NCBI RefSeq assembly: GCF_000011125.1
Contig: NC_000854.2
Span: forward strand, 270,001 to 302,000
Length of the DNA stretch: 32,000 nt
Origin: Aeropyrum pernix K1
GTDB taxonomy: Archaea; Thermoproteota; Thermoprotei_A; Sulfolobales; Acidilobaceae
Direction of reading: 5' to 3'
Part shown: positions 13,068-26,697 of the stretch, piece after piece
Layout: each line of letters opens with the position of its first letter
Position numbering within the stretch: the first letter of the stretch is position 1
The notes under the pieces: generated by a model
The model's input: only the letters and a program-made list of their open reading frames with translations
What the model was told of the DNA's origin: nothing
The model's database searches: none
Position numbers and translations under genes: made by a program

Positions 13068-14156
13068 GTGGCCATTATACTGGGGGGGATGGTGCCTAGG
13101 CCGCCGTGGAAGTACAGGCTATTGGCTGCTATACACGCCCACAGGAACGCGGGTGACCCGGGGGCCGATCCTCTGGTGAGAAGGGCTGTGGAGAGGCTCG
13201 TAGCCGTGACCTCGAGGGTAGTGTTTGGCGTTGAGAAGCCTGGCTGGATAACCTCTGGGGCGAGCGAGGGCAATCTCCTAGCACTCTACACCCTCCGGGA
13301 GGAGGGGTACCGGAGGGTTGTAGCGTTCGACACGTCACACTACAGCATCAAAAAGTCGGCGCTGACGCTATCCATGGAGCTCGACCTCCTCCCCACCCAC
13401 GGGGGGAGGCCCAGGCTAGACCTCCTGGAGAGGAGGATCACGCCCGACTCTGTTGTTGTGGCCACCGTAGGCACCACGCAGGAGGGGCTAGTCGACCCAG
13501 TGGAGGAGATAGCGGGGGTGGCGGAGAGCGTTGGGGCAGCGGTCCATGTTGACGCGGCCTACGGAGGCTACATAGCAAGGTTCCTAACCGGGAAGGCCCG
13601 GTTCAGACTCGAACCTCCCGTCATGACGGTAGTGGTGGACGCCCATAAGATCCCGGAGGCGCCCCCTCCCGCGGGCGTGATACTCGCCTCCAAGCAGAAA
13701 CTCCTAGACAACCTGTGGTTCGAATCACCCTACATACCAACAGGCAGGCAGTTCGGCATCCTCGGCACCAGGCCGGGAGGCCCCATAGTGGCGGCGTGGA
13801 GGAGGGTTGAGGACCTCGAGAGAAACCCCGGCTTCCCCAGGCTCGCCAGCATCCTAATGAGGAGGCTCAGGAAGACACTGAAAGCACTTGAAAGACTCGG
13901 CTACGAGACACCAGTAACTCCCGACCTACCAGTTGCCTGCGCCACACACCCCAGACTGGGAGAGGTCCTCGAAAGGCTCAAAGCCTCGGGAGTACGAGTC
14001 TACAGGTGCCGTTCACCCAAACCGTGCCTTCATGTAACAAATTATGGCAGGTTGTGTCGGGCACGGCTGGGGTCATCACGGTCTCCCCGGGGCTGCCTAC
14101 GGAAGCCCCTGGGGGCTTCCCTCGGGAACCCCGGGGTCACCGGGTTAGGTTTATAA
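13068..14156 (+). CDS. PLP-dependent group II decarboxylase (MfnA-like tyrosine/aspartate decarboxylase); the 3' tail is suspect
   Basis: ITSGASEGNLLAL, VATVGTTQEGLVDP, HVDAAYGGYI and the PLP-lysine motif VVVDAHKIPEAP. The last 40 codons or so (RCRSPKPCLHVTNYGRLCRARLGSSRSPRGCLRKPLGASLGNPGVTGLGL) are Cys/Arg/Gly-rich, run through GC palindromes and end exactly at the GC drop. The annotated 3' end may therefore not be native. Confidence 0.8.
   Translation: MAIILGGMVPRPPWKYRLLAAIHAHRNAGDPGADPLVRRAVERLVAVTSRVVFGVEKPGWITSGASEGNLLALYTLREEGYRRVVAFDTSHYSIKKSALTLSMELDLLPTHGGRPRLDLLERRITPDSVVVATVGTTQEGLVDPVEEIAGVAESVGAAVHVDAAYGGYIARFLTGKARFRLEPPVMTVVVDAHKIPEAPPPAGVILASKQKLLDNLWFESPYIPTGRQFGILGTRPGGPIVAAWRRVEDLERNPGFPRLASILMRRLRKTLKALERLGYETPVTPDLPVACATHPRLGEVLERLKASGVRVYRCRSPKPCLHVTNYGRLCRARLGSSRSPRGCLRKPLGASLGNPGVTGLGL
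14101..14120. repeat. Palindrome ggaagcccc-tg-ggggcttcc (9-bp arms)
   Basis: Read directly from the sequence. Flanked by two further GC palindromes, ccccgggg (14085-14092) and accccggggt (14128-14137). Confidence 0.9.
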
Positions 14157-14178
14157 GCTTAAAGCCTTATAAGTTTTA

Positions 14179-14193
14179 TTGGGGATTCCCCAA
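14179..14193. repeat. 15-nt perfect palindrome ttggggaTtccccaa
   Basis: Read directly from the sequence. It lies about 30 nt inside the island's left edge. Confidence 0.9.
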
Positions 14194-14220
14194 TATGAGC
14201 TACATAACGAAGAGATATGC

Positions 14221-14251
14221 TTAGATAGGCATTCAACACCAGCCTATCTAA
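14221..14251. repeat. Inverted repeat ttagataggc / gcctatctaa (10-bp arms, 11-nt spacer)
   Basis: Read directly from the sequence: 14221-14230 is the reverse complement of 14242-14251. Confidence 0.9.
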
Positions 14252-14265
14252 CAGCTCTACGCGGT

Positions 14266-14324
14266 ATAGAAAGATACAGTTCGATACAGAAAGTTACAGC
14301 TTAGTATTTCTGCCCCCGGTACAG
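14266..14324. repeat. Phased direct repeats: atagaaagatacag / acagaaagttacag (12/14 identical, period 20) containing G-N-TACAG heptamers
   Basis: Heptamers: gatacag at 14273, gatacag at 14283, gttacag at 14293 (exact 10-nt spacing), and ggtacag at 14318. Confidence 0.85.
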
Positions 14325-14390
14325 CGGGGTGAGAATAGTGATGATGCCGAGTATAAGACCGAAAACCTATATAAAATATCTAGCTTTGCA

Positions 14391-17300
14391 TTAAATAGGT
14401 CCTCCTGCACCGAAGTAGTATTCTTCCCGTTTCTCGATACTCACTTTCCTTCTGAACGGAATTCTTTCGGCAGGATTCTTTATACAAAGTATGACCGGTT
14501 TCTCTGTTCTAACACCATAGACTATATAGAGCCAGTAATTATCTCCCTTCTTCTCAGCCACCTTGAACTCCTCGCTTTTAAGCCCAAAGTTAAGGGATCT
14601 CTTAATTTTAGTCTTAACTTCGATGAACCTCTCCTCTTTGATACTTCCATCTTCTCCTCTTTTTACACTTCTCACATCATAATGCTCATGTCCCGAAACC
14701 CTTGTAGGTTCCCTATCTTCTTGTTTCTCATAGTCTAGTACAGTGGAGATAGCTTCATCTTCAGCCCAACCCCACACTTCCTCACTAGGCACATCCTTTA
14801 CTTCAGGTAGATTTGCAGAACTAATCATTATGAATGTGGGCTCCCTGATTTTCACTTGGGGCTCATATGTATGAAAGAATTTTTTAGCACCCAGCTTCTC
14901 CTTAACCTCCTCATACTCTTCAAGCATTTTAATTAGCTTAACAGCCCCATTCTTGAGCGCCGTTTCATAGAATGTATTGGGCGAAGAACTCATGATTTGG
15001 GGAATTAAATTAAGGACATCATCTAAGCCGTAAACTTCATCTACAGGAACTGAATTATCAAGTATTTTAAGGAGCTTGCTAAAGAGCTCCTTTCCCCTAA
15101 GTATAGTTAAGCTGTATGTCTCAACATTAGCCAATATCCCTATAGGCTCCCTATATCTAATTTCTCCGCCTATTAATACCTCAACTTCCGATAGAAGCAT
15201 TACCTCCTTTTCACTGCTTTGATAAACAAAATACTTTGCATGGTCATCTGTTCTGAAATAGGCCTGCAACCTTTTCAAGAAGGTCTCGGGGTTACTAATA
15301 GGTAGTTCAAACACAGTTCCATCTTTAGATCTTAAAAGTATCTTATCCTCTCTTTCCTCGAAACTTAGGTCTAGTATCTTAGAAAATGCTTCTCCAGCAT
15401 TTTTCAATGTCTCGACAACATCCTCCATATCTCTAAAGCCAGTTAGATGTAGCAACTCCTCCCGAACCTTTTCAGCGTCTGCTCTAACCGGAAATATTCT
15501 CTTATACTTTATCTCCCTTACGAGCCTCTTCAACGCCTTTATAAAGGCTTTAACAAAAGCACGGGCATCTTTGGCAACTAATTCGATAATCCTCGCTTCC
15601 GAGAGCGAAATTTTCCTATTCTCGAAGTTTATCTCAATTGGTATAAGGCCACCTATGGTCTCCCTCTCTTCAACAGCATGTTCTAATAATTCATTCCTTA
15701 TGGTTGAAAGGAACACTTGTTCTCCTAATATTGGTTCGAGTTTCCCTACTGAAATTGATATTCCATAGAGCTTCGCAAAGACAGTTTCAGCTACCTCTTT
15801 CTCCAGGCCATCGGCTAGGAATAGGTTAAACACATAGGTAGTTTTGTCCTGACCATATCTCCAAACCCTACCTATTCTCTGCTCAAGCCTTATGGGAGAC
15901 CAGGTTATCTCATAGTTGATAATGACATTGGCGTACTGAAGATTTAGTCCCTCACCAGCGACATCAGTTGTGACAAGAACTCTTCTACCATCCTCAGACA
16001 ACCACCTCTTTATATCCTCGATTTCACCCCTATTCTCAGAGGTAAATACCCTTACTATGCCTGGATCTCCAAACTCATCCTCGGCCCACTTCCTCAGCTT
16101 CTCGTAGAGATAAGTTGCAGTATCCTTAAACTCGGTGAACACAATGGCTTTCTGGCTAGCCAAATCTTTAAACTCGTCGGGAAGCTCCTCGGGAGGCGTA
16201 TATAGCACCAGTCCAAGTATTTTCTTCAGGGTTTCTACTTTGGAATCGACCGCTTTGCCTACTAAAATATCTTCAGCATACTTCTGAGCTTTCTTTAACT
16301 CTTCCCTAAACATATCGTCAAGGAGCTTATCGAAGTATATAGCTAGTCTCTCAAACTCTTCATCGAGCTCCTCATCTATTTCTCCGATATCTCCTGAGAG
16401 TATCTCGTCTAACTTCCTAGCGTAGTCTTCTATCTCCTCAGCTATTTTCTTCTGAGCCTCATCTGGGGTATACCCTCTGTCAATAAGCTCTATGAACCTG
16501 CCCCTCTTTTCCACAAGTTTGCCGAAAGTCTTTACTAGAGCCTGAGGACTCGAAAGCCCTCTCTTGACGAGTAAGGTTCTTAGTAAAGCTACTATGCTCT
16601 GTGCTCTACCTGTTTTCCAGCCTAGCTCCTTTACAATGTAGGTGTAATAGCTTCTTAGATAGGATGTTGTAAGCTCGGTTATAGTCCGCAGAAAGCCTCT
16701 CTCAACATCGTTAGGCTCTATAAGAACCGCCAGCATGTTGCAGGGTTTGAATATCTCGGCTCTTTCATAGATCTTGTTCACGTCATCCTTGTTTCTCCTG
16801 AAGAGGATTACATTATGTGTTCGCTGGTAGAATTCCGGCTTATCAAAAACTTTCTCAAGAGTGCTCACACTAGTTACGTCCAGAAGCGTTGGATCAACTA
16901 GTGCTAAACGTGAGAGATAATCGTTGGCCTTTCCTCTATGGGGTGTAGCCGATAACAGCAGCACTATAGCATCTCTATTCTCCATTATAAGCTTCCCCAG
17001 GTTTCTCCATCTCATGTTCGGTTCTCCGCCAACGACACCGAGCTTGTGGGCTTCGTCAACTACTATTGCATCCCATTTGTTTCTTTGGAGAAAAGCCATA
17101 TACTCTGGCCGCTTTAGAGTATCAATAGACCCTATGTACCATCCGGAAGGTAGCTCGGGTTGTTTGGCTCGGAAGTCTAGGCTTTTCCTTTCTATTAGGA
17201 TTGGATTGATGCCCATGCTTCTCATCTCGTCTTTCCATTGTTCAACAAGTACCGCTGGTACTGCGATTAGAACCCTCCCTAGCTTCTGGTTCTTGTAGTG

Positions 17301-17510
17301 TTCTATTGTCTTGAGTATTCTGAGTGCTGTAACGGTTTTTCCGAGCCCTATCACATCGGCTATGAGAATTCTAGTAGGCTTTATGAAGAGAGACTTGGCC
17401 ACCACCTCAGTCTGATGGAGTAGGGGATTTTTTTCGCCGTATATGAAAAAGGGATTGGAATCAAGATACCTTTCCGCGGTCCACAAGAGGGGGGCTATAT
17501 ATGGGTTCAT
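14391..17510 (-). CDS. SNF2/SWI2-family helicase (DEAH) with a C-terminal PD-(D/E)xK-like (DUF3883-like) module
   Basis: 1039 aa. Helicase motif I ADVIGLGKTVTA, II VVDEAHKLG, III LLLSATPHRG, V VTTDVAGEGLNLQ, VI LEQRIGRVWRYGQ. C-terminal 123 aa: DEAISTVLDYEKQ...HYDVRS...RFIEVKTK...LKSEEFKVAEKKGDNYWLYIVYGV. Confidence 0.9.
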   Translation of the reverse strand: MNPYIAPLLWTAERYLDSNPFFIYGEKNPLLHQTEVVAKSLFIKPTRILIADVIGLGKTVTALRILKTIEHYKNQKLGRVLIAVPAVLVEQWKDEMRSMGINPILIERKSLDFRAKQPELPSGWYIGSIDTLKRPEYMAFLQRNKWDAIVVDEAHKLGVVGGEPNMRWRNLGKLIMENRDAIVLLLSATPHRGKANDYLSRLALVDPTLLDVTSVSTLEKVFDKPEFYQRTHNVILFRRNKDDVNKIYERAEIFKPCNMLAVLIEPNDVERGFLRTITELTTSYLRSYYTYIVKELGWKTGRAQSIVALLRTLLVKRGLSSPQALVKTFGKLVEKRGRFIELIDRGYTPDEAQKKIAEEIEDYARKLDEILSGDIGEIDEELDEEFERLAIYFDKLLDDMFREELKKAQKYAEDILVGKAVDSKVETLKKILGLVLYTPPEELPDEFKDLASQKAIVFTEFKDTATYLYEKLRKWAEDEFGDPGIVRVFTSENRGEIEDIKRWLSEDGRRVLVTTDVAGEGLNLQYANVIINYEITWSPIRLEQRIGRVWRYGQDKTTYVFNLFLADGLEKEVAETVFAKLYGISISVGKLEPILGEQVFLSTIRNELLEHAVEERETIGGLIPIEINFENRKISLSEARIIELVAKDARAFVKAFIKALKRLVREIKYKRIFPVRADAEKVREELLHLTGFRDMEDVVETLKNAGEAFSKILDLSFEEREDKILLRSKDGTVFELPISNPETFLKRLQAYFRTDDHAKYFVYQSSEKEVMLLSEVEVLIGGEIRYREPIGILANVETYSLTILRGKELFSKLLKILDNSVPVDEVYGLDDVLNLIPQIMSSSPNTFYETALKNGAVKLIKMLEEYEEVKEKLGAKKFFHTYEPQVKIREPTFIMISSANLPEVKDVPSEEVWGWAEDEAISTVLDYEKQEDREPTRVSGHEHYDVRSVKRGEDGSIKEERFIEVKTKIKRSLNFGLKSEEFKVAEKKGDNYWLYIVYGVRTEKPVILCIKNPAERIPFRRKVSIEKREEYYFGAGGPI

Positions 17511-17520
17511 GATCTCACGC

Positions 17521-18069
17521 CTAGTCGAGCTTGTAGAGGACTTTTACCGCCCTGCCAACTCTTAGCATATGCCAATGCCATGCCGGGTTACTGGAGGCCT
17601 TCAACTCTCTATACCTATCCATCACTATTGTTGACAAAATGTTGATAAGGTTAGCGTTCATGGTCAACAAAAGATTCCTTAAAGCATTGAACCTCGCTTC
17701 TAAAGGCTTTTTATAAGTTGAAACCGTGACCGCAAAGAGTAGATGCCTCCGGAAGGCTACCTCGTTCGGCAGAAGTACAATAGGTTTTTCATAGTAGAGG
17801 TTCTGGCCTCGAATCTTAGACATTCTAACTTCAACAGTCTCCCCGCCGAGCTCTCTAGAGAAATCCAGTACTAGCTCCATAAACCTAACCGGGAAGGCTA
17901 TTCTTGCTTCGCCATTCCCGGCTGCTCTTGACGGCTCCTGACCTTCAAGTAGGCTGTAATATTCAATGTAAAACCTATGGGTTCTCAAAATGCCCTCATA
18001 CCTGTAATAAGGTTTCTTTCTCTTCCTAGCGGTAAAGGTGAAAACGTACCGTCCCTCCCTGGCCATCAA
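17521..18069 (-). CDS. Hypothetical 182-aa protein, operon component (possibly the DUF3780-type partner)
   Basis: ATG-started ORF lying 3 nt after the ATPase stop and 10 nt before the helicase start. Basic N-terminus (ARKRKKPYYRYEG). No catalytic motif recognised. The family assignment is from memory of gene neighbourhoods, not from an alignment. Confidence 0.7.
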   Translation of the reverse strand: MMAREGRYVFTFTARKRKKPYYRYEGILRTHRFYIEYYSLLEGQEPSRAAGNGEARIAFPVRFMELVLDFSRELGGETVEVRMSKIRGQNLYYEKPIVLLPNEVAFRRHLLFAVTVSTYKKPLEARFNALRNLLLTMNANLINILSTIVMDRYRELKASSNPAWHWHMLRVGRAVKVLYKLD

Positions 18070-18072
18070 CTA

Positions 18073-21000
18073 TTACCTCCTACTAGCTTTCTTTTTAACC
18101 TTAAACTTCAATCCCTTGGTACTGACTAGCAGCTTGGCCACATCACGTAGCTCTAGCTCTCCTTCGGGACTATACTCTATGTCGACAAGAGCACTCGCCT
18201 CTTTCATGTTTCGCAGTATGCTGTTTATGGGACTCCATAGTAGCTCGAAAACTTTAGGATCTGTAGTATCGACATTGAAACTTACGCTAACAGCCTTACC
18301 CGATACTGACAAGGAACCCCTTATTTTACCGGGATAAACTTTCGCAACCCTAGTTATGCTTGGCAAACCTACGACATCATTCACTCTGATACTTACAAGC
18401 TTAGCGTCCTCCTCTACCGCTTCACCCTCTTCTCCTATAGTTATCTCTTCCTCTATCCACTCTCCCTTAACAGAAACGCTTATTATTCTAGAATCCAGTA
18501 TGCTCCCGTTACCATACACTTCAACTTTGATACGGTAGTTCCCAGCCCTTCCAGCCTTCAACCTAAACTTGATAGGGAGAGGAGACTTGCCTTTGAACTC
18601 ACTAGGCTCTACGCTAAGCCCCTCATCCGGCTGAAGCTTTACTAGGAATTCGTTTTCATAGTTCTTTACGATGACTTCACCTGCAACTTCGTATTCTTTA
18701 TCTTCCAGTATATCATCTGGGAGCTCGTAATTCAACTCCACGAGGTATTTCTTCTCCTCGTAGAAGAGTTTCCCAGATTTTATCACGTTTTTGACATCGA
18801 ATTTAATATCCCTTATATCGAATACTTGACCGCTCCTATCCTTAACCTTGATAATCTTGTCGCTAGGGATGGACTCAGTTTCCCTTATTAACCACTCGTC
18901 GAAAACCTTCTCCCAGTAAACAAGCTCTACATCGTCCCACGAAGCTTTAATCCTGGTTAAATGCTCTCTTACTTTTTCAAGGAGTTTATTCCCTTCATCC
19001 AGAGCGTCTGCCTCCTCTTTGCTCTTAAAGATTGGCTTCCAAAGAAGCTTTCCCTTCACCCTGATAGCGTAATCTAAGCTTTTGACTAGGTCTTCAACCG
19101 CACCGATGAAGTCCCTGTATCTGATTATAGGTACGTTAGCCTTATCCGTGCTAAGTATGAAGTTCCAGAGTTCACCAACTTTTATCGGCTCCTCCTTTGG
19201 GTTTTTACCGAGATAGTCCTTAACTATGGATATTATGTTTTCACCCTTGAACTCATATGGAATTAGCTCTTTCTCCCTCAGGAACTCCTCTACTAATGGG
19301 AGAATTGGCTTGTCCGATTCTAATGACAGCCCTTCCTCGAAGCGTATCTGCCCAAGCCTATAGTAGTAGACTTTACGATAGCATCTGTTTATCATGTTCC
19401 ATGAATGTATATAATAATAGTCTTTCTTGCTTTCGACTTTCGTCTTTAGAAGATTTAACAACTCCTTTAAATATTCCTCGTCCCCTTTAACCACTTTCTC
19501 GCCTAGGAAAGCTCTCAAGTTCTCTTCTCTTATACTCTCCGTGGCAACATAGTACTTTAATATCTCTAATAGGCTGTCCCAAACAGTCTTACCCCTAAGC
19601 CCGGCAAGCTCTCTAATACCTGCGATATCCTCGGGAGCTAGCTTCTCCTCTTCACCCATACCCTCTACATGAGGCGCTAACACAACGATGTTATTTCTCC
19701 CTTTAAGAACCTTGAACAGCTCGTCTTTAGATATTTTATCAGCGAAAACTATTAATGCGGGATCTCTAGAGTCTAGAATCTCCTTAGGTATAGTAGCAGC
19801 ATTTTTGACTACAGCGTATCCAGCGAATACTGACTCCTCCTTGTAGCCCTTCGGAGGCCTTCCCCTCCCCCTCCTACCTATTAATCCCGATTCTAGAAGT
19901 TCTGCCAGCTTGTTTTTAGCCATCTCATCAGTAACATTCTTCTTCAATATCTCGATTAGCTCCTCAACAGAAGGTATGATTGTGAAGAACCATTTTGCAC
20001 TATCGCTTTCCGGGTCGCCGTGAACTATTAATTGGGGTAAAACACTCCTTAAAATGCCTAGAACACCCTTGGCGTCCTGCTCCGTCGGTGATACCGAGTA
20101 TATGAGATCTGCTGTAGTCGGGAACTCGCCCATGTTCATAGGTAGACCTAAGCCTACGAGGCTGTGCAACCATATGTTAGAAGCTAGTTTGAGGCCCAGC
20201 TTCGCTTCGTCTTCCTTGAGGCTCTTTAGCGCCCTTGACATAACCCTCTCATAGAACTCCTCTTTACTCAGCTTCTTCAGATTACCGAGGTTTTCGGGTA
20301 CTACCACGTTGCTTCTAAGTATTAAGTAGAATACTCTGTATTCATCAGGAGCGTTTCTTAGTATGGTTTCATCCAACACCTCACTTACAAACAACGGTAT
20401 GTGGTGCGGCATTATCAGATTTATTTCATCCTCAAGGGCGTCGAACAACCCTTCCTTCAAAGCCAATACTGTTTGAACAGCAATTTTAATCGCATCCCTA
20501 GTCCTCTGAAGGTACGGGAGCCTATAGGCTAGCTTCTCAAGTACGTTAAGAAACATGGGATGGAACGGGTAAGTCTCCTCAGCCTCCCTCCAGAAGCTCC
20601 TGTCGTCGAGGATCCTCCTAACCTGTGCTGGATACTCCCTATTAAACTCTCTGGAAACCAGCTCGTTAAAGAACTTCTTCAGCTCATTCTTCTTATGCGC
20701 GAATATCCTCTTCCTAAGTATCTCAGCTAGATCACGCCTTCCAACAGGCTTTATTATCTCCACGCTCGGCCTACTCAGAACCTCGTTAATTGCCCGTATT
20801 AATTCGGGTCTATGCACATACTCCATACCAGCTTTGGCTTCAGCCCCCCCTCCTCTAACCTCATAAGGTATGGATATTACTACTGCGACCTCGCTAACGT
20901 TGTACTTGCTTAGAGCCTCAGCTAGATTCATAAGAAACGCTGAAATCTTAGTGGGCTCTAGCCCACTCTGATCATAATATCTGCCAATCTCGTCTATCAG

Positions 21001-21639
21001 TACTAATGCTCTACTCCCGTTCAACAATTTAGACACGTCATCGGCATAGGGTGCTGTCTCCCTTTCGTCAGAGATTTTCACAATATCGTATCTACCAAGC
21101 TCATAGCCTAGATAGCCCCACAGCGTTTTGACCCTCCTACCACCAATCTCAATCGGCCTAACAGGGCTTGGAGCTAGATCACTATACTTGCAGTCTATGA
21201 CAACTAGGTTGAGGGACATATTCTTAATTAAATCCCAGTTCCCATCGACAAAGTCAGCTATATCGTTGTCGAGTATCCTCAGCTTGGATATAACGCTCTC
21301 TTTATCGTGTGAATCTCTAACAAGCTTAAACACATGGTATAGGAGTATGAGCGAGTGTGTTTTCCCTCCACCCAGGTCTGAGGGTAGGAGAATCAGGTTG
21401 CTTGAAACCGTGTAACGTTTGCCACCTATGGTTTCGGCTTTAAGACCTAGCAGATTCATAAACGCCTTTATGACCAGCTCCTTCATAGAGTCTGTTAAGT
21501 GTGTTCTGCTGAAGAACTCTGCCGGATCCTGGATGAATATAGGGGCGTTTCCCTTTACTAAATCACCTAAGTCAACGGCGGGCTCGTACCTTAAATTCTT
21601 TACTTCATCCCTTACCCTCAGGCTCCTTACATCAACCAT
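18073..21639 (-). CDS. Large P-loop NTPase, DUF499/BrxC(PglY)-like
   Basis: 1188 aa. Walker A SDLGGGKTHS (aa 87-96), Walker B ALVLIDEIGRYY (aa 211-222). Long helical middle region and a beta-rich C-terminal region (YEVAGEVIVKNYENEFLVKLQPDEGLSVEP...YRIKVEVYGNGSILDSRIISVSVKGE). ATG start 3 nt after the methyltransferase stop, preceded by gagggag. Confidence 0.85.
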   Translation of the reverse strand: MVDVRSLRVRDEVKNLRYEPAVDLGDLVKGNAPIFIQDPAEFFSRTHLTDSMKELVIKAFMNLLGLKAETIGGKRYTVSSNLILLPSDLGGGKTHSLILLYHVFKLVRDSHDKESVISKLRILDNDIADFVDGNWDLIKNMSLNLVVIDCKYSDLAPSPVRPIEIGGRRVKTLWGYLGYELGRYDIVKISDERETAPYADDVSKLLNGSRALVLIDEIGRYYDQSGLEPTKISAFLMNLAEALSKYNVSEVAVVISIPYEVRGGGAEAKAGMEYVHRPELIRAINEVLSRPSVEIIKPVGRRDLAEILRKRIFAHKKNELKKFFNELVSREFNREYPAQVRRILDDRSFWREAEETYPFHPMFLNVLEKLAYRLPYLQRTRDAIKIAVQTVLALKEGLFDALEDEINLIMPHHIPLFVSEVLDETILRNAPDEYRVFYLILRSNVVVPENLGNLKKLSKEEFYERVMSRALKSLKEDEAKLGLKLASNIWLHSLVGLGLPMNMGEFPTTADLIYSVSPTEQDAKGVLGILRSVLPQLIVHGDPESDSAKWFFTIIPSVEELIEILKKNVTDEMAKNKLAELLESGLIGRRGRGRPPKGYKEESVFAGYAVVKNAATIPKEILDSRDPALIVFADKISKDELFKVLKGRNNIVVLAPHVEGMGEEEKLAPEDIAGIRELAGLRGKTVWDSLLEILKYYVATESIREENLRAFLGEKVVKGDEEYLKELLNLLKTKVESKKDYYYIHSWNMINRCYRKVYYYRLGQIRFEEGLSLESDKPILPLVEEFLREKELIPYEFKGENIISIVKDYLGKNPKEEPIKVGELWNFILSTDKANVPIIRYRDFIGAVEDLVKSLDYAIRVKGKLLWKPIFKSKEEADALDEGNKLLEKVREHLTRIKASWDDVELVYWEKVFDEWLIRETESIPSDKIIKVKDRSGQVFDIRDIKFDVKNVIKSGKLFYEEKKYLVELNYELPDDILEDKEYEVAGEVIVKNYENEFLVKLQPDEGLSVEPSEFKGKSPLPIKFRLKAGRAGNYRIKVEVYGNGSILDSRIISVSVKGEWIEEEITIGEEGEAVEEDAKLVSIRVNDVVGLPSITRVAKVYPGKIRGSLSVSGKAVSVSFNVDTTDPKVFELLWSPINSILRNMKEASALVDIEYSPEGELELRDVAKLLVSTKGLKFKVKKKASRR

Positions 21640-21642
21640 AGT

Positions 21643-24600
21643 TTACACTCCCTCAATATAGTCTCTAACCAGCTTCGCCAAATTAGTTTCAGGATCGCTG
21701 GGATAGCTGCTTATAACCTTCGCTACCTCGACAGCCTCCCTAACCTGTTTGGGGTACTTACTGTATAGGATCTGATACGTTGTTTTAAACTCCGACCTAC
21801 CCTGTTTAGCATAGTACTCGAGCAGGTGGAGAGCATCGATAGAATTGAAACTTCTCCTCTCAGCATCCATCTTTATCGGGTTAACGCCTCTCACGCCAAG
21901 CAGCTTCTTAAGCTCCTCAATAGTGGAGTCTAGTGGTTCGAGCAAGGCGAACGCCTTTTGCTTAGCGACATTAGCGCCTTTAACCTCCTCGGCAGACTTT
22001 ATGATCCCGGCGTTCACAAACGTCTTGTAACCCTCCTTTTCCGGTCTTTCCACACTCCTTAAGAAGCCGTAGGAGAGAATTATGACGTCGTGGCTTGACA
22101 GAACTATAGGCTCTGCAGGGGCACTAGACAGTGTTGTCTGCCCCCCCGGCCTAGAGTAGCGCCTGAAGATGGCTTTAGAGGCAAGGTAAAATAGCGCTTC
22201 CGGAGACCTTATCGTCTCTGTAGCATTGGCTATGACCCTAGTGGCTATAGCGTAAGACTCCCTAACAACATCCCTCGATGTAAGCCCCCTACCAAAGTGG
22301 ACCACCCTATCGTAGGATGTGAACGTTGAGAGAGCTCCAAGCATCGTAGACAAGAACATATCGCTATCCGTCAGACCGGATTTAAACGCCTCATCCCTAG
22401 CCCTCCTAGCGTTCTCCAAAGCCTCTCTATACACATCAACATACTCGCCAACTCTTCCACCATCCTTACCCCTTTTCCTCCAGACAACAACGATGCTGGA
22501 CTCTAGAGCAGTCTTACCCCTAGCCGTAACCCTCTGCGGAGACTCAGTAGCGAAAGCCCACGCCCTAGTAACCCTTAAACCGGCTCTCCGCCACCCGGCC
22601 TCTACAAGCTCAATCCAAGCCTCTGGACTAGAGTGAGCAAAGTAAGTAACAATTAACCCATCATCCTTTAGAAGCTCTGACAGCCTCTTAAAGGCCATAC
22701 CCATAAGCCTCTCATAATAGTCCTCAGCCTCTCTAACCCCGAAGTACCTTAGTCTACCCTCATTATAGCTAATCTCATTTAATGCAAAACCCTCCCATTG
22801 AGTATTGGACACTAATGCATCACTATGGAACCTAAGAGCCAAGCCATCCCCACTTAAAGACCTCTTCAGCCAAACATAGTAGAAATCACTAAGCTCAGCA
22901 TAAGGTACATCATCCCTATAAGGCGGGTCAGTAACAATAACATCAAACCTCTCACCCTCTAGCTTACTAAGCACGGTAGCATCGTCAAGCAAAACCCTAA
23001 CCCTACCAGAACTACCAGAAACAGCAGAAACAAGATACAACAGAGCATCTACGACTGTCTCCACGCTATCGAAATAGTTATATGATATATCCTCGTGTGC
23101 TAGCCATGTATCACCCCAATTCCATGTCATTGCAATCCCGCGTGTAGACAAGCTATCTTGAACTTTATTGAGAACCCAGGAATCCGGCTTCCATCTTGTA
23201 ACAAGGCTATTATAGGTCATCGAGCGTAGAAATGCTATTGCTAAGTATGTTGTTATTGCTTCTGCGTATTTGTGGGCTTCTTCCCTGCTCCACCCTTCTC
23301 TCAGCTTCTCCTCCTCGATTCTCTTGCCTGTTTCTCGTATTAGTTTGACGAGTTTGACTAGGGTTAGGAGCTGGCGTGGGTTGAATAGCTTGAACCACTT
23401 ATCATTACCCCATGTGTAAGTCATCAAATTTCTATTATCATAGCTTGGTATTGGTTCTGTTGGTATGTCTGGGTCTCCCCATAGTTGTCTTAGTTTTTCT
23501 AGCGCTTTCCACAGCTTCTCGTCGTCCCGGTCCGTTGCCGGCTCGAACTTTAGGTCTTTGTTTGCTATCTTTACTTTGACTAGTAGTCTTGGTCTTGCTA
23601 GTGAGTTTCTCAGCTCCTCTAAAGCTATTCCTCCTTCAAGGTATTCTTCCAGCTTCTTATTCCAGTCCTTTAAAGCATGTTTTGGATAGAATTCTAATCT
23701 GCTCCTGATCAGGGTGTTGGCAACCTCGTTTTTAGTTCTGTAGGTCCTGCCCGTCCTTGGGTCTATATATGTTATTCTGCTACCGCATAGTAGGCATTCC
23801 GCTAGCTCGGGTCTACCGGCGACGTTAGGCGATGGTGACCCGCCTGTCTTGCCCTCGATTATCTTGATACCGATTTTATTCCCTTCCGTCTCGGGTTTCA
23901 TGTACGCATACCTCTTCCCTTTAACCTTGGCCAGCCACCAGTTGCCGACTAGTGGTGTATACCTGCCGCAGACGGGGCATTTGACTTCCCAAGTTCCAAT
24001 GTATACTGCTGCATCTTCGTCGTAAAGCTCTTTAATGTCAGGGTCTTCTCCAAGCCTCTTGGTAATCCATCTACCCCACCTGGCAACATCGTAGATCAAG
24101 GCTGGTATCTCGTAGGTTTTCCCGTCAAATATGCTCTTTTCCCTGATAAACCCGCTAACAGCTTTGTCAAGCTCTAATTCTCTAATTTCCCTTCCTAGTA
24201 CCCTGACCCTCGCTTCTGAATACTCCTTCGGATACTCAAGCATGGCTTTTAGGAATATGTAGGCTGTCGGCAGAAACTCTACGGCAACAACCTCGCCTAC
24301 ACCAAGCCTGATAGCCTCGAGGGGTATCGAGCCAAAGCCGGCGAAGGGATCCAACAGTTTAGCCTGCTTAAACCTCTCCTTCACACCACGAGGTAGAATA
24401 GGATTAAGCCTGTGAGGCACTTTACCAGCAATTAACCTCAACTCGCTCAGGAAGCCAGTCTTATCATAATCTCCGGGCAATAATGCCCCAGCTATTACAG
24501 CTCTAGCACCCGCCAGCGGCTTCCTAGTCCACCAGAACACCATCTCCCAGTAGGGCGGGCGGCCGCCACCCTGTTTCTCCCTGGCAGAAACCTCGTTGAT

Positions 24601-24666
24601 CAAGCTAATAGGGAATCTCGAGGTCTCTATAAACCTCTTATCCTCCCCACTAGCCACGTCTCCCAC
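21643..24666 (-). CDS. DNA methyltransferase (N6-A/N4-C type) with an inserted Zn-ribbon, DUF1156-like
   Basis: 1007 aa with a GTG start. N-terminal FPISLINEVSAREK...WWTRKPLAGARAVI. SAM motif I LLDPFAGFGSIP (aa 104-115, nt 24322-24357). CxxC...CxxC: CPVCG at aa 230 and CLLCG at aa 291. Catalytic motif IV VIVTDPPY (DPPY at nt 22918-22929). About 420 aa of C-terminal extension of unknown function. Confidence 0.9.
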   Translation of the reverse strand: MGDVASGEDKRFIETSRFPISLINEVSAREKQGGGRPPYWEMVFWWTRKPLAGARAVIAGALLPGDYDKTGFLSELRLIAGKVPHRLNPILPRGVKERFKQAKLLDPFAGFGSIPLEAIRLGVGEVVAVEFLPTAYIFLKAMLEYPKEYSEARVRVLGREIRELELDKAVSGFIREKSIFDGKTYEIPALIYDVARWGRWITKRLGEDPDIKELYDEDAAVYIGTWEVKCPVCGRYTPLVGNWWLAKVKGKRYAYMKPETEGNKIGIKIIEGKTGGSPSPNVAGRPELAECLLCGSRITYIDPRTGRTYRTKNEVANTLIRSRLEFYPKHALKDWNKKLEEYLEGGIALEELRNSLARPRLLVKVKIANKDLKFEPATDRDDEKLWKALEKLRQLWGDPDIPTEPIPSYDNRNLMTYTWGNDKWFKLFNPRQLLTLVKLVKLIRETGKRIEEEKLREGWSREEAHKYAEAITTYLAIAFLRSMTYNSLVTRWKPDSWVLNKVQDSLSTRGIAMTWNWGDTWLAHEDISYNYFDSVETVVDALLYLVSAVSGSSGRVRVLLDDATVLSKLEGERFDVIVTDPPYRDDVPYAELSDFYYVWLKRSLSGDGLALRFHSDALVSNTQWEGFALNEISYNEGRLRYFGVREAEDYYERLMGMAFKRLSELLKDDGLIVTYFAHSSPEAWIELVEAGWRRAGLRVTRAWAFATESPQRVTARGKTALESSIVVVWRKRGKDGGRVGEYVDVYREALENARRARDEAFKSGLTDSDMFLSTMLGALSTFTSYDRVVHFGRGLTSRDVVRESYAIATRVIANATETIRSPEALFYLASKAIFRRYSRPGGQTTLSSAPAEPIVLSSHDVIILSYGFLRSVERPEKEGYKTFVNAGIIKSAEEVKGANVAKQKAFALLEPLDSTIEELKKLLGVRGVNPIKMDAERRSFNSIDALHLLEYYAKQGRSEFKTTYQILYSKYPKQVREAVEVAKVISSYPSDPETNLAKLVRDYIEGV

Positions 24667-25230
24667 ACCTCGACAGGAGCTGTTACGCGATGATGTCTTA
24701 CCAGTGTGACCGTGAGAATTTTCCTGCCCGCGAGAGCCAAGGAATACACCTTGTAACGCATTCCATAGCCAAAGCTATAAAAGCCCTTGTAGAGGCTTTC
24801 CCTGTAGTAACAATTTTAGGGAAAAGCACTTTCAGGCACCCTCTATCAGAGGAGGTCATTACTTTGCCCAAGACTCAACAGGCCCCCAGCAGCTCCCACA
24901 CAATCATAGGCTCTCAAGCTTATGGCTTGAAACGTTTGAGAGCATGTTTAACATACTCAGGCATAACAGGCGAGTTTTTCCTTAGCCTCACAACTAATCC
25001 CAATATCCTTCCCATACATTTCCAACCATGTATAGAAGCTGCTCCTCTGATAATGAGATGGCGCGCCTCCCGCTTAGCTTATGGGGAATCCAAAGTCTCC
25101 ACTGATCACGTCACCGTGCATTACCATCGTTCCTTATAATTTGCTCGACTGTACGAGGGTGAAACGTGCTATACAGTACTTTTCCCATTGTTTGTGCTTT
25201 AGTTTTTAATAATGATGTTAAAGATGTTTG

Positions 25231-25325
25231 TGGAGCCGCCGGCGGGATTCGAACCCGCGACCACCGGCTTACAAGGCCGGCGCTTTAGGCCCCGCGCAGG
25301 GGTCTGCCTGCTGAGCTACGGCGGC
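25231..25325 (-). tRNA. tRNA-Thr (anticodon UGU), CCA encoded, with about 19 extra nt in the D-loop region (putative non-canonical intron)
   Basis: Minus strand: GCCGCCG-TA-GCTC-AGCAGG[CAGACCCCTGCGCGGGGCC]TAAAGC-G-CCGGC-CTTGTAA-GCCGG-TGGTC-GCGGG-TTCGAAT-CCCGC-CGGCGGC-T-CCA. Acceptor, anticodon and T arms pair perfectly. The gene is 95 nt, against about 76 expected. Confidence 0.85.
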
Positions 25326-25380: not shown

Positions 25381-25457
25381 TGGGGGCCTGGGAGCTTTGG
25401 GGGCTGGTGCCGCCGCCGGGATTCGAACCCGGGACCTCCGGATCTCCCAGGCCCCCA
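25381..25457. repeat. 14-nt perfect inverted repeat linking the tRNA-Met intron and the inter-tRNA spacer
   Basis: tgggggcctgggag (25381-25394) is the exact reverse complement of ctcccaggccccca (25444-25457). An 8-nt core, ctcccagg, recurs at 25327-25334. Confidence 0.95.
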
Positions 25458-25529
25458 GGCGACTTCGGCCTGTGGGTGTTTAGCCGGGCCGTATGAGTCC
25501 GGCGCTCTGCCAGGCTGAGCTACGGCGGC
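25405..25529 (-). tRNA. tRNA-Met (anticodon CAU, elongator-type; could be tRNA-Ile2), CCA encoded, 48-nt intron at canonical position 37/38
   Basis: Minus strand: GCCGCCG-TA-GCTC-AGCCTGGCA-GAGC-G-CCGGA-CTCATA[48-nt intron CGGCCCGGCTAAACACCCACAGGCCGAAGTCGCCTGGGGGCCTGGGAG]A-TCCGG-AGGTC-CCGGG-TTCGAAT-CCCGG-CGGCGGC-A-CCA. It is not initiator-like: G1-C72, and no GGG/CCC anticodon stem. Confidence 0.9.
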
Positions 25530-25571: not shown

Positions 25572-25754
25572 TTAAGCTTGGTGTAGCTGTTTTAGTATGG
25601 CTTCGCGTATGAACTCGCTCCTTGTTAGCCCCTTCTTCTCTGCGCGGCGGTCTATCTCCTCGAGGAGGTCTGCCTCGATCTTGAATGTGACGACCTTGAT
25701 CCTTTTCTCCCTCCTTCTGGGGGCGTAGGTGACTATTATCTCCATGGCTGCCAT
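25572..25754 (-). CDS. Ribbon-helix-helix (CopG/MetJ-type) DNA-binding protein
   Basis: 60 aa. Beta-strand VVTFKIEADLL followed by two helices, EEIDRRAEKKGLTRSEFIREAILKQL. This is the classical RHH pattern. Confidence 0.85.
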   Translation of the reverse strand: MAAMEIIVTYAPRRREKRIKVVTFKIEADLLEEIDRRAEKKGLTRSEFIREAILKQLHQA

Positions 25755-25890: not shown

Positions 25891-26697
25891 CTATCCTGTG
25901 GTTTGGAGGAGTGTGAGGGTTATCTCTATGCCCCCGTCCTCTTGTCCAGGTATTGCCAGGTCATACCTTATTTTTGATGCGGCTATTAGGCCGTCTATTC
26001 TGGCGAGCTCCATGCTGAGGGGCGCCTGGGCCCAGGGGTTTTGGCTCAGGCCAGCCGCCTGGGGTAGTAATACCACCTGCAGCCCCCTCTTCGCCCCCTC
26101 CGGCGTCTCCACCTTCTGGAAGCTAACGTTCACCCTGACGGCCGCCGAGACTGCGCCCTGAGCTATGAACTGGCCCCAGTCTATGCCTAGGGCGCCGCTT
26201 AGGTAGTAGTGTAGGTATAGGGGGGCTATGCCGGGGAATACTTCTACCCCGATGATCTCGCCCTGGCTCCCCTGGGCGAAGGAGAGGCCCGTTAGGAAAG
26301 CCTCCTCCCACCTGAGGACGTCCATGGGGGTTTCAAGGCCGGAGGCCGGGTCGATTCTAGCCATCGAGGTTAGGGCGTTCTCGCCGTACTCGTAGCGTAT
26401 CTTATACTGGAGCTCCCCGGCCTTGTAGAGCTCGGCCACCCCGCTCCTGGAGCTTGGGCTGTTGTCAACCACCACCCGGTACACGTCGCCGCCGACCCTC
26501 ACCTCGTACTCAAGCCTATCGACACTGTCGAGGATTGCGCCGAGGCTCGGTGTTGGGCTTGCAAGGCTTTTCAGCACGCCATAGTGCATGTAGTAGACAG
26601 CGGCCCCGCCAACAGCGGAGAGCAGGGCTAGGGCGGCGAAGACGGTGAACAACGGCTTGAAAGACACCAGCTTCATAACCCGCAGACACCCATCCAA
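25891..26697 (-). CDS. Membrane-anchored or secreted hypothetical protein
   Basis: 268-aa ORF from a TTG. The likely real start is the ATG at 26676 (MKLVSFKPLFTVFAALALLSAVGGAAVYY), which gives an N-terminal signal anchor. The rest is soluble and beta-rich. No family recognised. Confidence 0.6.
   Translation of the reverse strand: MDGCLRVMKLVSFKPLFTVFAALALLSAVGGAAVYYMHYGVLKSLASPTPSLGAILDSVDRLEYEVRVGGDVYRVVVDNSPSSRSGVAELYKAGELQYKIRYEYGENALTSMARIDPASGLETPMDVLRWEEAFLTGLSFAQGSQGEIIGVEVFPGIAPLYLHYYLSGALGIDWGQFIAQGAVSAAVRVNVSFQKVETPEGAKRGLQVVLLPQAAGLSQNPWAQAPLSMELARIDGLIAASKIRYDLAIPGQEDGGIEITLTLLQTTG

Follow-up and report, generated by a model that had tools for sequence, protein, structure and literature searches.

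BREX-related (BR) systems combine a DUF499 ATPase, an N6-methyltransferase and a Swi2/Snf2 helicase (Rakesh & Krishnan, PMC12839542). All three components are homologous to components of BREX, and the DUF499-centred family is found in ~3,600 taxa (PMC12839542). Here we analyse a candidate archaeal member, a four-gene cassette of Aeropyrum pernix K1 that encodes a DUF1156-type methyltransferase, a DUF499 ATPase, a small basic protein (APE_0414.1) and a helicase-nuclease. The cassette lies in a 32,000-nt stretch of contig NC_000854.2 (positions 270,001 to 302,000), hereafter called the window, to which all coordinates refer unless a related locus is named. A sequence-only reading of this window had put the cassette forward as an uncharacterised, modification-linked defence system. 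Our analysis places it very probably within the DUF499-centred BR family.

The BR family has been divided into types (PMC12839542). Type-1 systems have three genes, and their helicase is arranged as TUDOR, Snf2 and a C-terminal restriction endonuclease (REase). Type-2 systems add a standalone DUF3780 protein, which has been speculated to be a modification reader replacing TUDOR; their helicase has no TUDOR domain and bears an HKD/PLD nuclease at its N-terminus. Type-3 systems add PglZ and iSTAND (PMC12839542). Operons of methyltransferase, DUF499 and SNF2-nuclease genes had been noted by Aravind's group in 2013 (PMC3710099), and an archaeal operon with the order COG1743, DUF499 and SNF2-nuclease was described later (Bell, Wolf & Koonin 2020, PMC7641849).

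Experimental work has addressed both the Hma and the Type-2 branches. In the Halomonas meridiana hma study, HmaA alone protected Escherichia coli against T4, defence required the metal-dependent nicking activity of its NOV_C domain (Chen et al. 2024, PMC11232893), and overexpression of HmaB left T4 infectivity unchanged (PMC11232893). A Type-2 member, MANTIS (formerly Gao_RL or Gao_29) from Pseudomonas aeruginosa, encoded by MtsABCD, has been dissected both biochemically and structurally (September 2026 preprint, bioRxiv 10.64898/2026.09.23.753747). In MANTIS, the AAA+ ATPase MtsA loads the methyltransferase MtsC on DNA, with ATP hydrolysis leading to turnover, and the small dimeric protein MtsB (DUF3780) is needed for methylation. 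Hemimethylation takes place at an asymmetric site of 6 bp. The effector is the PLD-helicase MtsD, a dimer that prefers inverted unmodified sites, and restriction needs all four proteins. The authors anticipated in general terms that the small protein encoded after DUF499 would vary, and their study left unresolved the role of the small cofactor and the transient loading complex (10.64898/2026.09.23.753747).

Four tightly spaced genes in a low-GC island

The cassette occupies the minus strand. Gene 1 (21643-24666, GTG start, BAA79372.2) encodes the DUF1156 methyltransferase of 1007 amino acids (aa), gene 2 (18073-21639, BAA79371.1) the DUF499 AAA+ ATPase of 1188 aa, gene 3 (17521-18069, BAA79370.2/WP_148678889.1) the small basic protein APE_0414.1, and gene 4 (14391-17510, BAA79369.1) the Snf2 helicase-nuclease of 1039 aa. 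All four products are identical to A. pernix K1 database entries. The intergenic gaps are 3, 3 and 10 nt. Gene 3 encodes 182 aa from a TTG codon or 181 aa from an ATG at 18066; the second, which agrees with the RefSeq model of 181 aa, is probably the true start and widens the second gap to 6 nt. For gene 4, the RefSeq protein WP_158298216.1 (1003 aa) lacks the first 36 residues of the 1039-aa GenBank model (window 17403-17510). These residues are conserved, and the alignments of relatives begin at residue 1-4; both support the 1039-aa start and with it the 10-nt gap to gene 3.

The G+C content (GC) of the cassette is 45.0%, compared with 58.9% and 62.9% in the flanks and roughly 60% in the K1 chromosome. 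Compared with their homologues, all four open reading frames (ORFs) are full length (~100% coverage), with no frameshifts or internal stops. The layout that the sequence-only reading had described, four co-directional and closely packed genes in a low-GC island, was thus reproduced in coordinates, gaps and base composition, and every motif that it had listed for genes 1, 2 and 4 was located in the translations.

Predicted functions of the three large proteins

Gene 1 carries methyltransferase motif I (LLDPFAGFGSIP) at residue 104 and motif IV (DPPY) at residue 580. The two are separated by an insert of ~450 aa that holds a zinc finger formed by the CxxC pair CPVC (residue 230) and CLLC (residue 291). 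The succession of motif I, insert and motif IV is common to gene 1 and MtsC, and by analogy with MtsC the insert may be the target-recognition domain. Pfam identified DUF1156 (40.6 bits, residues 18-65), above its gathering threshold, and Cons_hypoth95 (30.9 bits). Among the PADLOC models, gene 1 matched MTase_II (677 bits), HmaB (193 bits) and the Gao_RL-type model DUF1156_MTase (101 bits). Gene 1 is therefore predicted to encode a DUF1156-type N6-adenine DNA methyltransferase, the counterpart of HmaB and MtsC.

Gene 2 matched Pfam DUF499 end to end with 1083 bits (residues 119-1184 against positions 2-1024 of the 1024-position profile). Its Walker A motif (GGGKTH) is at residue 90 and its Walker B motif (LIDE) at residue 214, and it has no N-terminal HEPN domain. 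PADLOC returned HmaC (108 bits), DUF499 of Gao_RL (34 bits) and BrxC (18 bits), the HmaC match being limited to the N-terminal third of the protein. These profiles mark gene 2 as a predicted DUF499 ATPase of the ORC/Cdc6 clade of AAA+ proteins, a counterpart of HmaC and MtsA and a homologue of BrxC.

Gene 4 contains the helicase motifs GLGKT at residue 55, DEAH at residue 152 and QRIGRVWR at residue 544, followed by a C-terminal YD...IEVK module. Its Pfam domains, all above the gathering thresholds, are NOV_C (71.5 bits, residues 916-1005), Helicase_C (65.2 bits), ResIII (53.4 bits) and SNF2-rel_dom (52.2 bits). The PADLOC HmaA profile scored 206 bits (residues 28-614 against profile positions 104-672) and the BrxHI and BrxHII profiles 161-163 bits. 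Two Type-2 models, PLD_Helicase of PADLOC (89 bits) and phospholipD_antiphage of NCBIfam (124 bits against a cut-off of 1100), covered the helicase part only; Pfam found no PLD domain on gene 4, and its helicase core starts near residue 30. The best match among PDB sequences was RapA (query residues 43-209 against RapA 168-335). In an alignment with the Type-1 helicase of a bacterial (Planktothrix) plasmid, residue 19 of gene 4 corresponds to residue 90 of that protein, and the NOV_C domains of gene 4 and a Type-1 helicase are 36% identical over 55 aa. Because motif I lies at residue 55, and given where the HmaA, RapA and Type-1 helicase alignments begin, there is no space for a TUDOR domain of ~70 aa, and gene 4 is predicted to lack this N-terminal domain. 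It would accordingly be a RapA-like Swi2/Snf2 helicase with a C-terminal NOV_C/DUF3883 nuclease domain of the PD-(D/E)xK type, corresponding to HmaA and predicted to be the effector of the cassette.

The sequence-only reading had assigned the large proteins to DUF1156, DUF499, and SNF2 with Helicase_C and DUF3883, respectively, and the Pfam matches bear it out on each. PADLOC uses the name Hma for the three-gene version of the system, and the best named PADLOC matches of the cassette were HmaA, HmaB and HmaC (E 1e-31 to 1e-61). The profile scores place the three large proteins in the Hma/BR families, far from both reference sets though a little closer to Hma.

APE_0414.1 represents a sequence family of its own

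The small protein had been expected to be DUF3780, and here the sequence-only reading was not supported. Gene 3 had no Pfam match even at E=10 and none in PADLOC or NCBIfam. The PADLOC DUF3780 models did not match it, while the DUF3780 protein of a Deinococcus plasmid, used as a positive control, was found at 135 bits. Consistently, hhalign of the small-family alignment (A2, 32 sequences) against a DUF3780 alignment (A3, 36 sequences) returned a probability of 0.08. DUF3780 was thus rejected for APE_0414.1 at the sequence level. Other candidates fared no better. A detached TUDOR domain or Type-1 helicase N-terminus was rejected (probability 0.19), no relationship to DUF7680 was detected (probability 0.17-0.18), and neither profile nor Foldseek searches gave a BrxA- or BrxB-like match.

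Homologues of APE_0414.1 are few. We collected 43 (E<=1e-3, 46-76% identity), all from thermophilic archaea or metagenomes, and a profile search found 21 cluster representatives among 1.84 billion. Scanning one genome per species (185,579 species) with the small-protein alignment yielded at least six loci, in Thermoproteota, Ca. Tiamatella, Baldrarchaeota, Bathyarchaeota and uncultured archaea; this count is a lower bound, the scan not having returned A. pernix K1's own exact, pattern-matching copy. Ten distant family members were scanned as well and showed neither DUF3780 nor DUF7680, their Pfam matches being weak and far below threshold.

The AlphaFold2 model of APE_0414.1 (pLDDT 89.7, pTM 0.88) has an alpha+beta N-terminal half with the order β-β-α-β-α-β-β and a C-terminal four-helix bundle. 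Foldseek found nothing significant in the PDB (best E 0.07, TM <0.3) or among the viral structures of BFVD (best E 0.017), and a profile search of PDB sequences returned noise only. The weak top fold matches were assorted ferredoxin-like and ACT-like domains, which we do not regard as meaningful. The predicted DUF3780 model (pLDDT 85), with β-β-β-α-β followed by four to five helices, is similar in size and in gross plan, an N-terminal sheet and a C-terminal helical bundle, but its elements are connected differently. The family of APE_0414.1 is strongly basic, with a median isoelectric point (pI) of 10.0 and a net charge of +13.5, as compared with a pI of ~6.7 in the DUF3780 sample. A pI near 10 fits contact with nucleic acid. 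Judged by these searches, APE_0414.1 represents an archaeal orphan family that is rare and strongly basic, and we propose, from its place in the slot of MtsB, that it may be a cofactor of the ATPase-methyltransferase module.

The cassette is conserved as a unit in related archaeal loci

We compared the cassette with 12 related loci from metagenomes and metagenome-assembled genomes (L001, L002/L013, L003-L008, L014, L016, L017 and L018). L002 and L013 are one and the same contig, and L005 is short, with only the first ~150 helicase residues. The order methyltransferase, DUF499, small gene and helicase/NOV_C was seen in all 12 as far as the contigs extend, and in 11/11 that reach far enough. Identity to the A. 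pernix proteins is 62-67% for the methyltransferase, 54-66% for DUF499, 45-63% for the small protein and 55-68% for the helicase. In every related locus that shows both neighbours, the small gene lies between DUF499 and the helicase, and its start falls anywhere from 5 nt past the DUF499 stop to 14 nt ahead of it. Such tight or overlapping junctions fit translational coupling. A further locus, L012, encodes a small-protein relative of only 25% identity, followed by a helicase N-terminus of 61% identity.

The constant order, together with the similar divergence of the four proteins, indicates that the four genes evolve as a unit, and the expectation that they would be co-conserved was borne out. 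Families and recurring order are far beyond chance, given the 1083 bits for DUF499, the other Pfam matches above their gathering thresholds, and the recurrence of the order in independent archaeal contigs at 45-68% amino acid identity.

Relatives carry one gene more. Directly downstream of the helicase gene, and often overlapping it, all 9/9 loci that extend past the helicase have a fifth gene of ~415-428 aa (L001:13652-14923, L002:6005-7252, L006:13673-14935, L007:12720-14006, L014:11050-12315, L016:7089-8342 and L018:4013-5269 among them). Its product has a metallo-beta-lactamase (MBL) core (Lactamase_B_2, 28 bits) with weak DRMBL/RMMBL matches, and on these grounds looks like a beta-CASP-type nuclease. 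It had no PADLOC match, and the main text of the BR survey makes no mention of MBL-type proteins (PMC12839542).

Some of these loci have been altered or have picked up other genes. L015 (Ca. Baldrarchaeota JAEOSG010000118.1) retains an intact small gene (60% identity), but the matches on either side are limited to 190 aa at the C-terminal end of DUF499 and 39 aa at the start of the helicase, which suggests that its cassette is disrupted or rearranged. Toxin-antitoxin pairs (MazE/PIN, Phd/VapC) lie between core genes of DUF499 cassettes at L006:5753-6380, L011:11776-12512 and L010:2800-2976, which recalls the description of hma loci as a "defence gene insertion hotspot". An EVE-domain gene adjoins the L001 cassette (L001:2493-2930) and an HEPN_Swt1 gene the L002 cassette (L002:7262-8695), in keeping with the published links of such systems to EVE and HEPN.

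A proposed mechanism and its alternatives

Taken as a whole, the data are best explained by a horizontally acquired, restriction-modification (RM)-like defence cassette of the BR family with a mechanism of the MANTIS/HmaA type, a reading that we consider probable. By analogy with MANTIS and HmaA, the DUF1156 methyltransferase would set sequence specificity through its zinc-finger-bearing insert between motifs I and IV and would mark host DNA, probably by hemimethylation of a short asymmetric motif. The methyltransferase would not work by itself: the DUF499 ATPase would load it on DNA, ATP hydrolysis leading to turnover, and APE_0414.1 would serve as a co-activator or adaptor in the role of MtsB, though unrelated to it in sequence. 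On unmodified sites, the complex would recruit the Swi2/Snf2 motor, which would translocate and nick or cut foreign DNA with its C-terminal PD-(D/E)xK (NOV_C) domain. In the relatives, the beta-CASP-like MBL protein probably gives a second nuclease activity, which A. pernix would have lost or never had. For this mechanism in all its steps, we put the chances at even or slightly better.

Several observations weigh against this RM-like reading. Since HmaA was protective alone and HmaB overexpression was without effect on T4, RM-like logic is not proven for NOV_C-type systems. The equivalog models of NCBIfam for Type-2 proteins scored 41-138 bits against cut-offs of 1000-1200 (DUF499_antiphage, 41 bits for gene 2 against 1200; DUF1156_antiphage, 138 bits for gene 1 against 1000). 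In the literature searched, no N6-methyladenine (m6A) motif is given for A. pernix K1, only M.ApeKI, a 5-methylcytosine (m5C) enzyme. The MtsB-like role of APE_0414.1 is drawn from gene position, size and charge only: there is no detectable homology to MtsB/DUF3780, and when the predicted models are compared by element order, the order of elements differs. Finally, a tblastn search of the window with the fifth-gene product of L001 (E<=1e-5) turned up nothing, and the A. pernix copy of the cassette may be incomplete.

The results on HmaA invite a rival account, in which gene 4 alone would sense infection and nick DNA in an abortive-infection-like response, the other three genes being dispensable or modulatory and self/non-self methylation playing no part. 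Gene 4 shares NOV_C and the helicase core with Type-1 helicases; the protection of E. coli against T4 by HmaA alone required the NOV_C nickase, and T4 grown in an HmaB-overexpressing host was restricted no differently (PMC11232893). Such a single effector is hard to reconcile with the constant four-gene order and the near-equal divergence, which imply that the other three genes are selected together with the helicase, or with the intact catalytic motifs of the methyltransferase. Moreover, the related MANTIS needs all four of its proteins for restriction, and the A. pernix helicase is without the TUDOR domain of HmaA-type proteins. We regard this account as unlikely.

We think it similarly improbable that the A. 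pernix copy is a decaying passenger, the inactive remnant of a five-gene cassette that no longer defends its host. Against decay, the four ORFs run at full length with ~100% coverage and neither frameshifts nor internal stops, and all catalytic motifs are intact. In its favour are the missing MBL gene, present in 9/9 relatives that extend past the helicase, the foreign base composition of the island and the silence of the searched literature on an m6A motif for K1; three- and four-gene BR systems that have no MBL partner are nevertheless functional elsewhere.

Least likely of all, and in our judgement very doubtful, is modification-dependent restriction, in which modified foreign DNA would be attacked, the small protein would read modified bases and the methyltransferase would protect the host like an antitoxin: it has been predicted for EVE-associated archaeal operons of COG1743, DUF499, SNF2-nuclease and EVE (PMC7641849), an EVE-domain gene adjoins the L001 cassette and DUF3780 has been speculated to be a reader replacing TUDOR (PMC12839542), but Pfam detected neither EVE, ASCH or PUA nor any further known reader domain among the A. 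pernix cassette proteins, no PDB structure with a reader fold matched the APE_0414.1 model, and the small protein of MANTIS, instead of reading modified bases, activates methylation in a system that targets unmodified sites.

Genomic surroundings and origin of the island

The RM-like reading includes a horizontal origin, on which the surroundings of the cassette bear. At the upper island edge, the GC profile shows a lower-GC non-coding stretch of 564 nt upstream of gene 1 (24667-25230), presumed to be the promoter region. No conserved ORF was found in it, and an ORF of 149 aa on the plus strand (24690-25139) had no Pfam match. Adjoining this stretch is an intron-containing tRNA-Pro gene (GGG anticodon, 25234-25325), followed on the minus strand by a second tRNA gene (25408-25529), identified by Rfam with 58 bits and missed by ARAGORN. 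At ~122 nt, the second tRNA gene presumably also contains an intron. The pair is separated by 83 nt and has 37-nt and 16-nt repeats in common. Beyond it, a 60-aa ORF on the minus strand (25572-25754) has a C-terminal part (LTRSEFIREAILKQLHQA) that is ribbon-helix-helix/CopG-like by eye, and the ORF at 25891-26697 had no family match. The upper-side neighbours beyond the tRNA pair encode diphthamide synthase, a glycosyltransferase and a protein of the uracil-DNA glycosylase (UDG) family.

At the lower island edge, a 234-nt AT-rich intergenic stretch (14157-14390) takes the position that the fifth gene has in relatives. It borders a high-GC gene for a pyridoxal phosphate (PLP)-dependent decarboxylase (13068-14156, plus strand), and further lower-side neighbours encode subunits of the A-type ATP synthase.

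The cassettes of relatives have 38-46% GC, with one at 54%. The 45% GC of the island against 59-63% in the flanks, the lower-GC relatives, the two border tRNA genes and the housekeeping neighbours together fit horizontal acquisition of the cassette by A. pernix K1 from a lower-GC thermophilic archaeon. An integrated element was rejected as the vehicle, as we found no integrase, no att-like direct repeat spanning the island, and no relatives on viral contigs.

Comparison with described systems

Among described systems, MANTIS has the same number of genes. Both cassettes have four genes, a DUF499 ATPase, a gene for a protein of ~180-200 aa right after the ATPase gene, and no PglZ; both also combine a DUF1156-type N6-adenine methyltransferase (motif I, central insert and DPPY) with an effector in which an SF2 helicase is fused to a nuclease. 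They differ in that the A. pernix small protein is not DUF3780 by sequence and in the nuclease, which is C-terminal PD-(D/E)xK (NOV_C) in A. pernix but N-terminal HKD/PLD in MANTIS. The gene order is methyltransferase, ATPase, small gene and helicase in A. pernix, whereas it is ATPase, small gene, methyltransferase and helicase in MANTIS; Deinococcus and Haloarcula loci share the ATPase, small gene, methyltransferase order of MANTIS. A. pernix is moreover a hyperthermophilic archaeon whose relatives carry the fifth, MBL gene.

With Hma and Type-1 systems, the cassette shares the C-terminal NOV_C/DUF3883 PD-(D/E)xK domain on the helicase and the N-terminal DUF1156 domain on the methyltransferase. 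Type-1 systems, however, have three genes only, whereas A. pernix has a fourth conserved small gene between ATPase and helicase, and its helicase begins ~70 residues later, at the helicase core, whereas Type-1 helicases start with TUDOR. The likeness to Type-3 BREX (BrxC, the BrxXI methyltransferase, the BrxHII helicase, PglZ and others) extends to the weak BrxC match and the BrxHI/BrxHII matches. Pfam and PADLOC found no PglZ, BrxA, BrxB or BrxL among the cassette proteins or the tested flanking genes, and the A. pernix effector differs in being a fused PD-(D/E)xK nuclease.

A haloarchaeal locus provides a further point of reference. On plasmid pHMA155 of Haloarcula marismortui (L009:7890-11797 and L019:5139-8777), the order is DUF499, DUF7680, methyltransferase and SNF2 helicase. 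DUF7680 is a protein of 205 aa whose gene overlaps the end of the DUF499 gene, a likeness to the small-gene slot of A. pernix. The pHMA155 helicase (1212 aa) has an N-terminal extension of 275 aa and no NOV_C, and differs in this from that of A. pernix. DUF7680 and DUF3780 are unrelated in sequence (probability 0.74%). Because DUF3780, DUF7680 and APE_0414.1 are mutually unrelated in sequence, the slot after DUF499 is apparently filled by at least three small-protein families.

From this we tentatively suggest, at somewhat less than an even chance, that the slot is an exchangeable cofactor position, taken by DUF3780/MtsB in bacteria, DUF7680 in haloarchaea and APE_0414.1 in thermophilic archaea, so that APE_0414.1 would be a non-homologous replacement of MtsB and the locus an undescribed fourth BR subtype. 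If so, its fold would be one that finds no match in the structure libraries searched, and the hyperthermostable proteins might permit capture of the complex of ATPase, cofactor, methyltransferase and DNA that is transient in MANTIS. The archaeal variant would offer a natural test of whether the cofactor function is generic, with different proteins doing the same job, and the growth of A. pernix at 90-95 °C recommends its proteins for structural studies of the complex in its assembled state. Genome annotation gains modestly, in that the label "conserved hypothetical" can give way to that of a BR/Hma-like defence cassette for APE_0414.1 and its neighbours.

These comparisons bear on how much of the cassette had been described before. 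The sequence-only reading had called it PglZ-less and BREX-related and had placed the effector nuclease in the C-terminal domain of the helicase, a description that matches the DUF499-centred BR systems (PMC12839542). Its view that the system is wholly uncharacterised is not borne out, as the family had already been named (Hma; Gao_RL/MANTIS; BR Types 1-3), nor is its view that mechanistic characterisation was missing, as a Type-2 member has been dissected (bioRxiv 10.64898/2026.09.23.753747). The cassette belongs instead to a partly characterised family. Its match to a characterised system extends at the family level to three of the four components, the small protein being the exception, and by its predicted domain content the A. 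pernix locus fits neither Type-1 nor Type-2 as published. What is new here is a subtype-level variant, limited to a small set of thermophilic archaea, that combines a TUDOR-less helicase-REase with an orphan basic protein and, in the relatives, a beta-CASP MBL gene.

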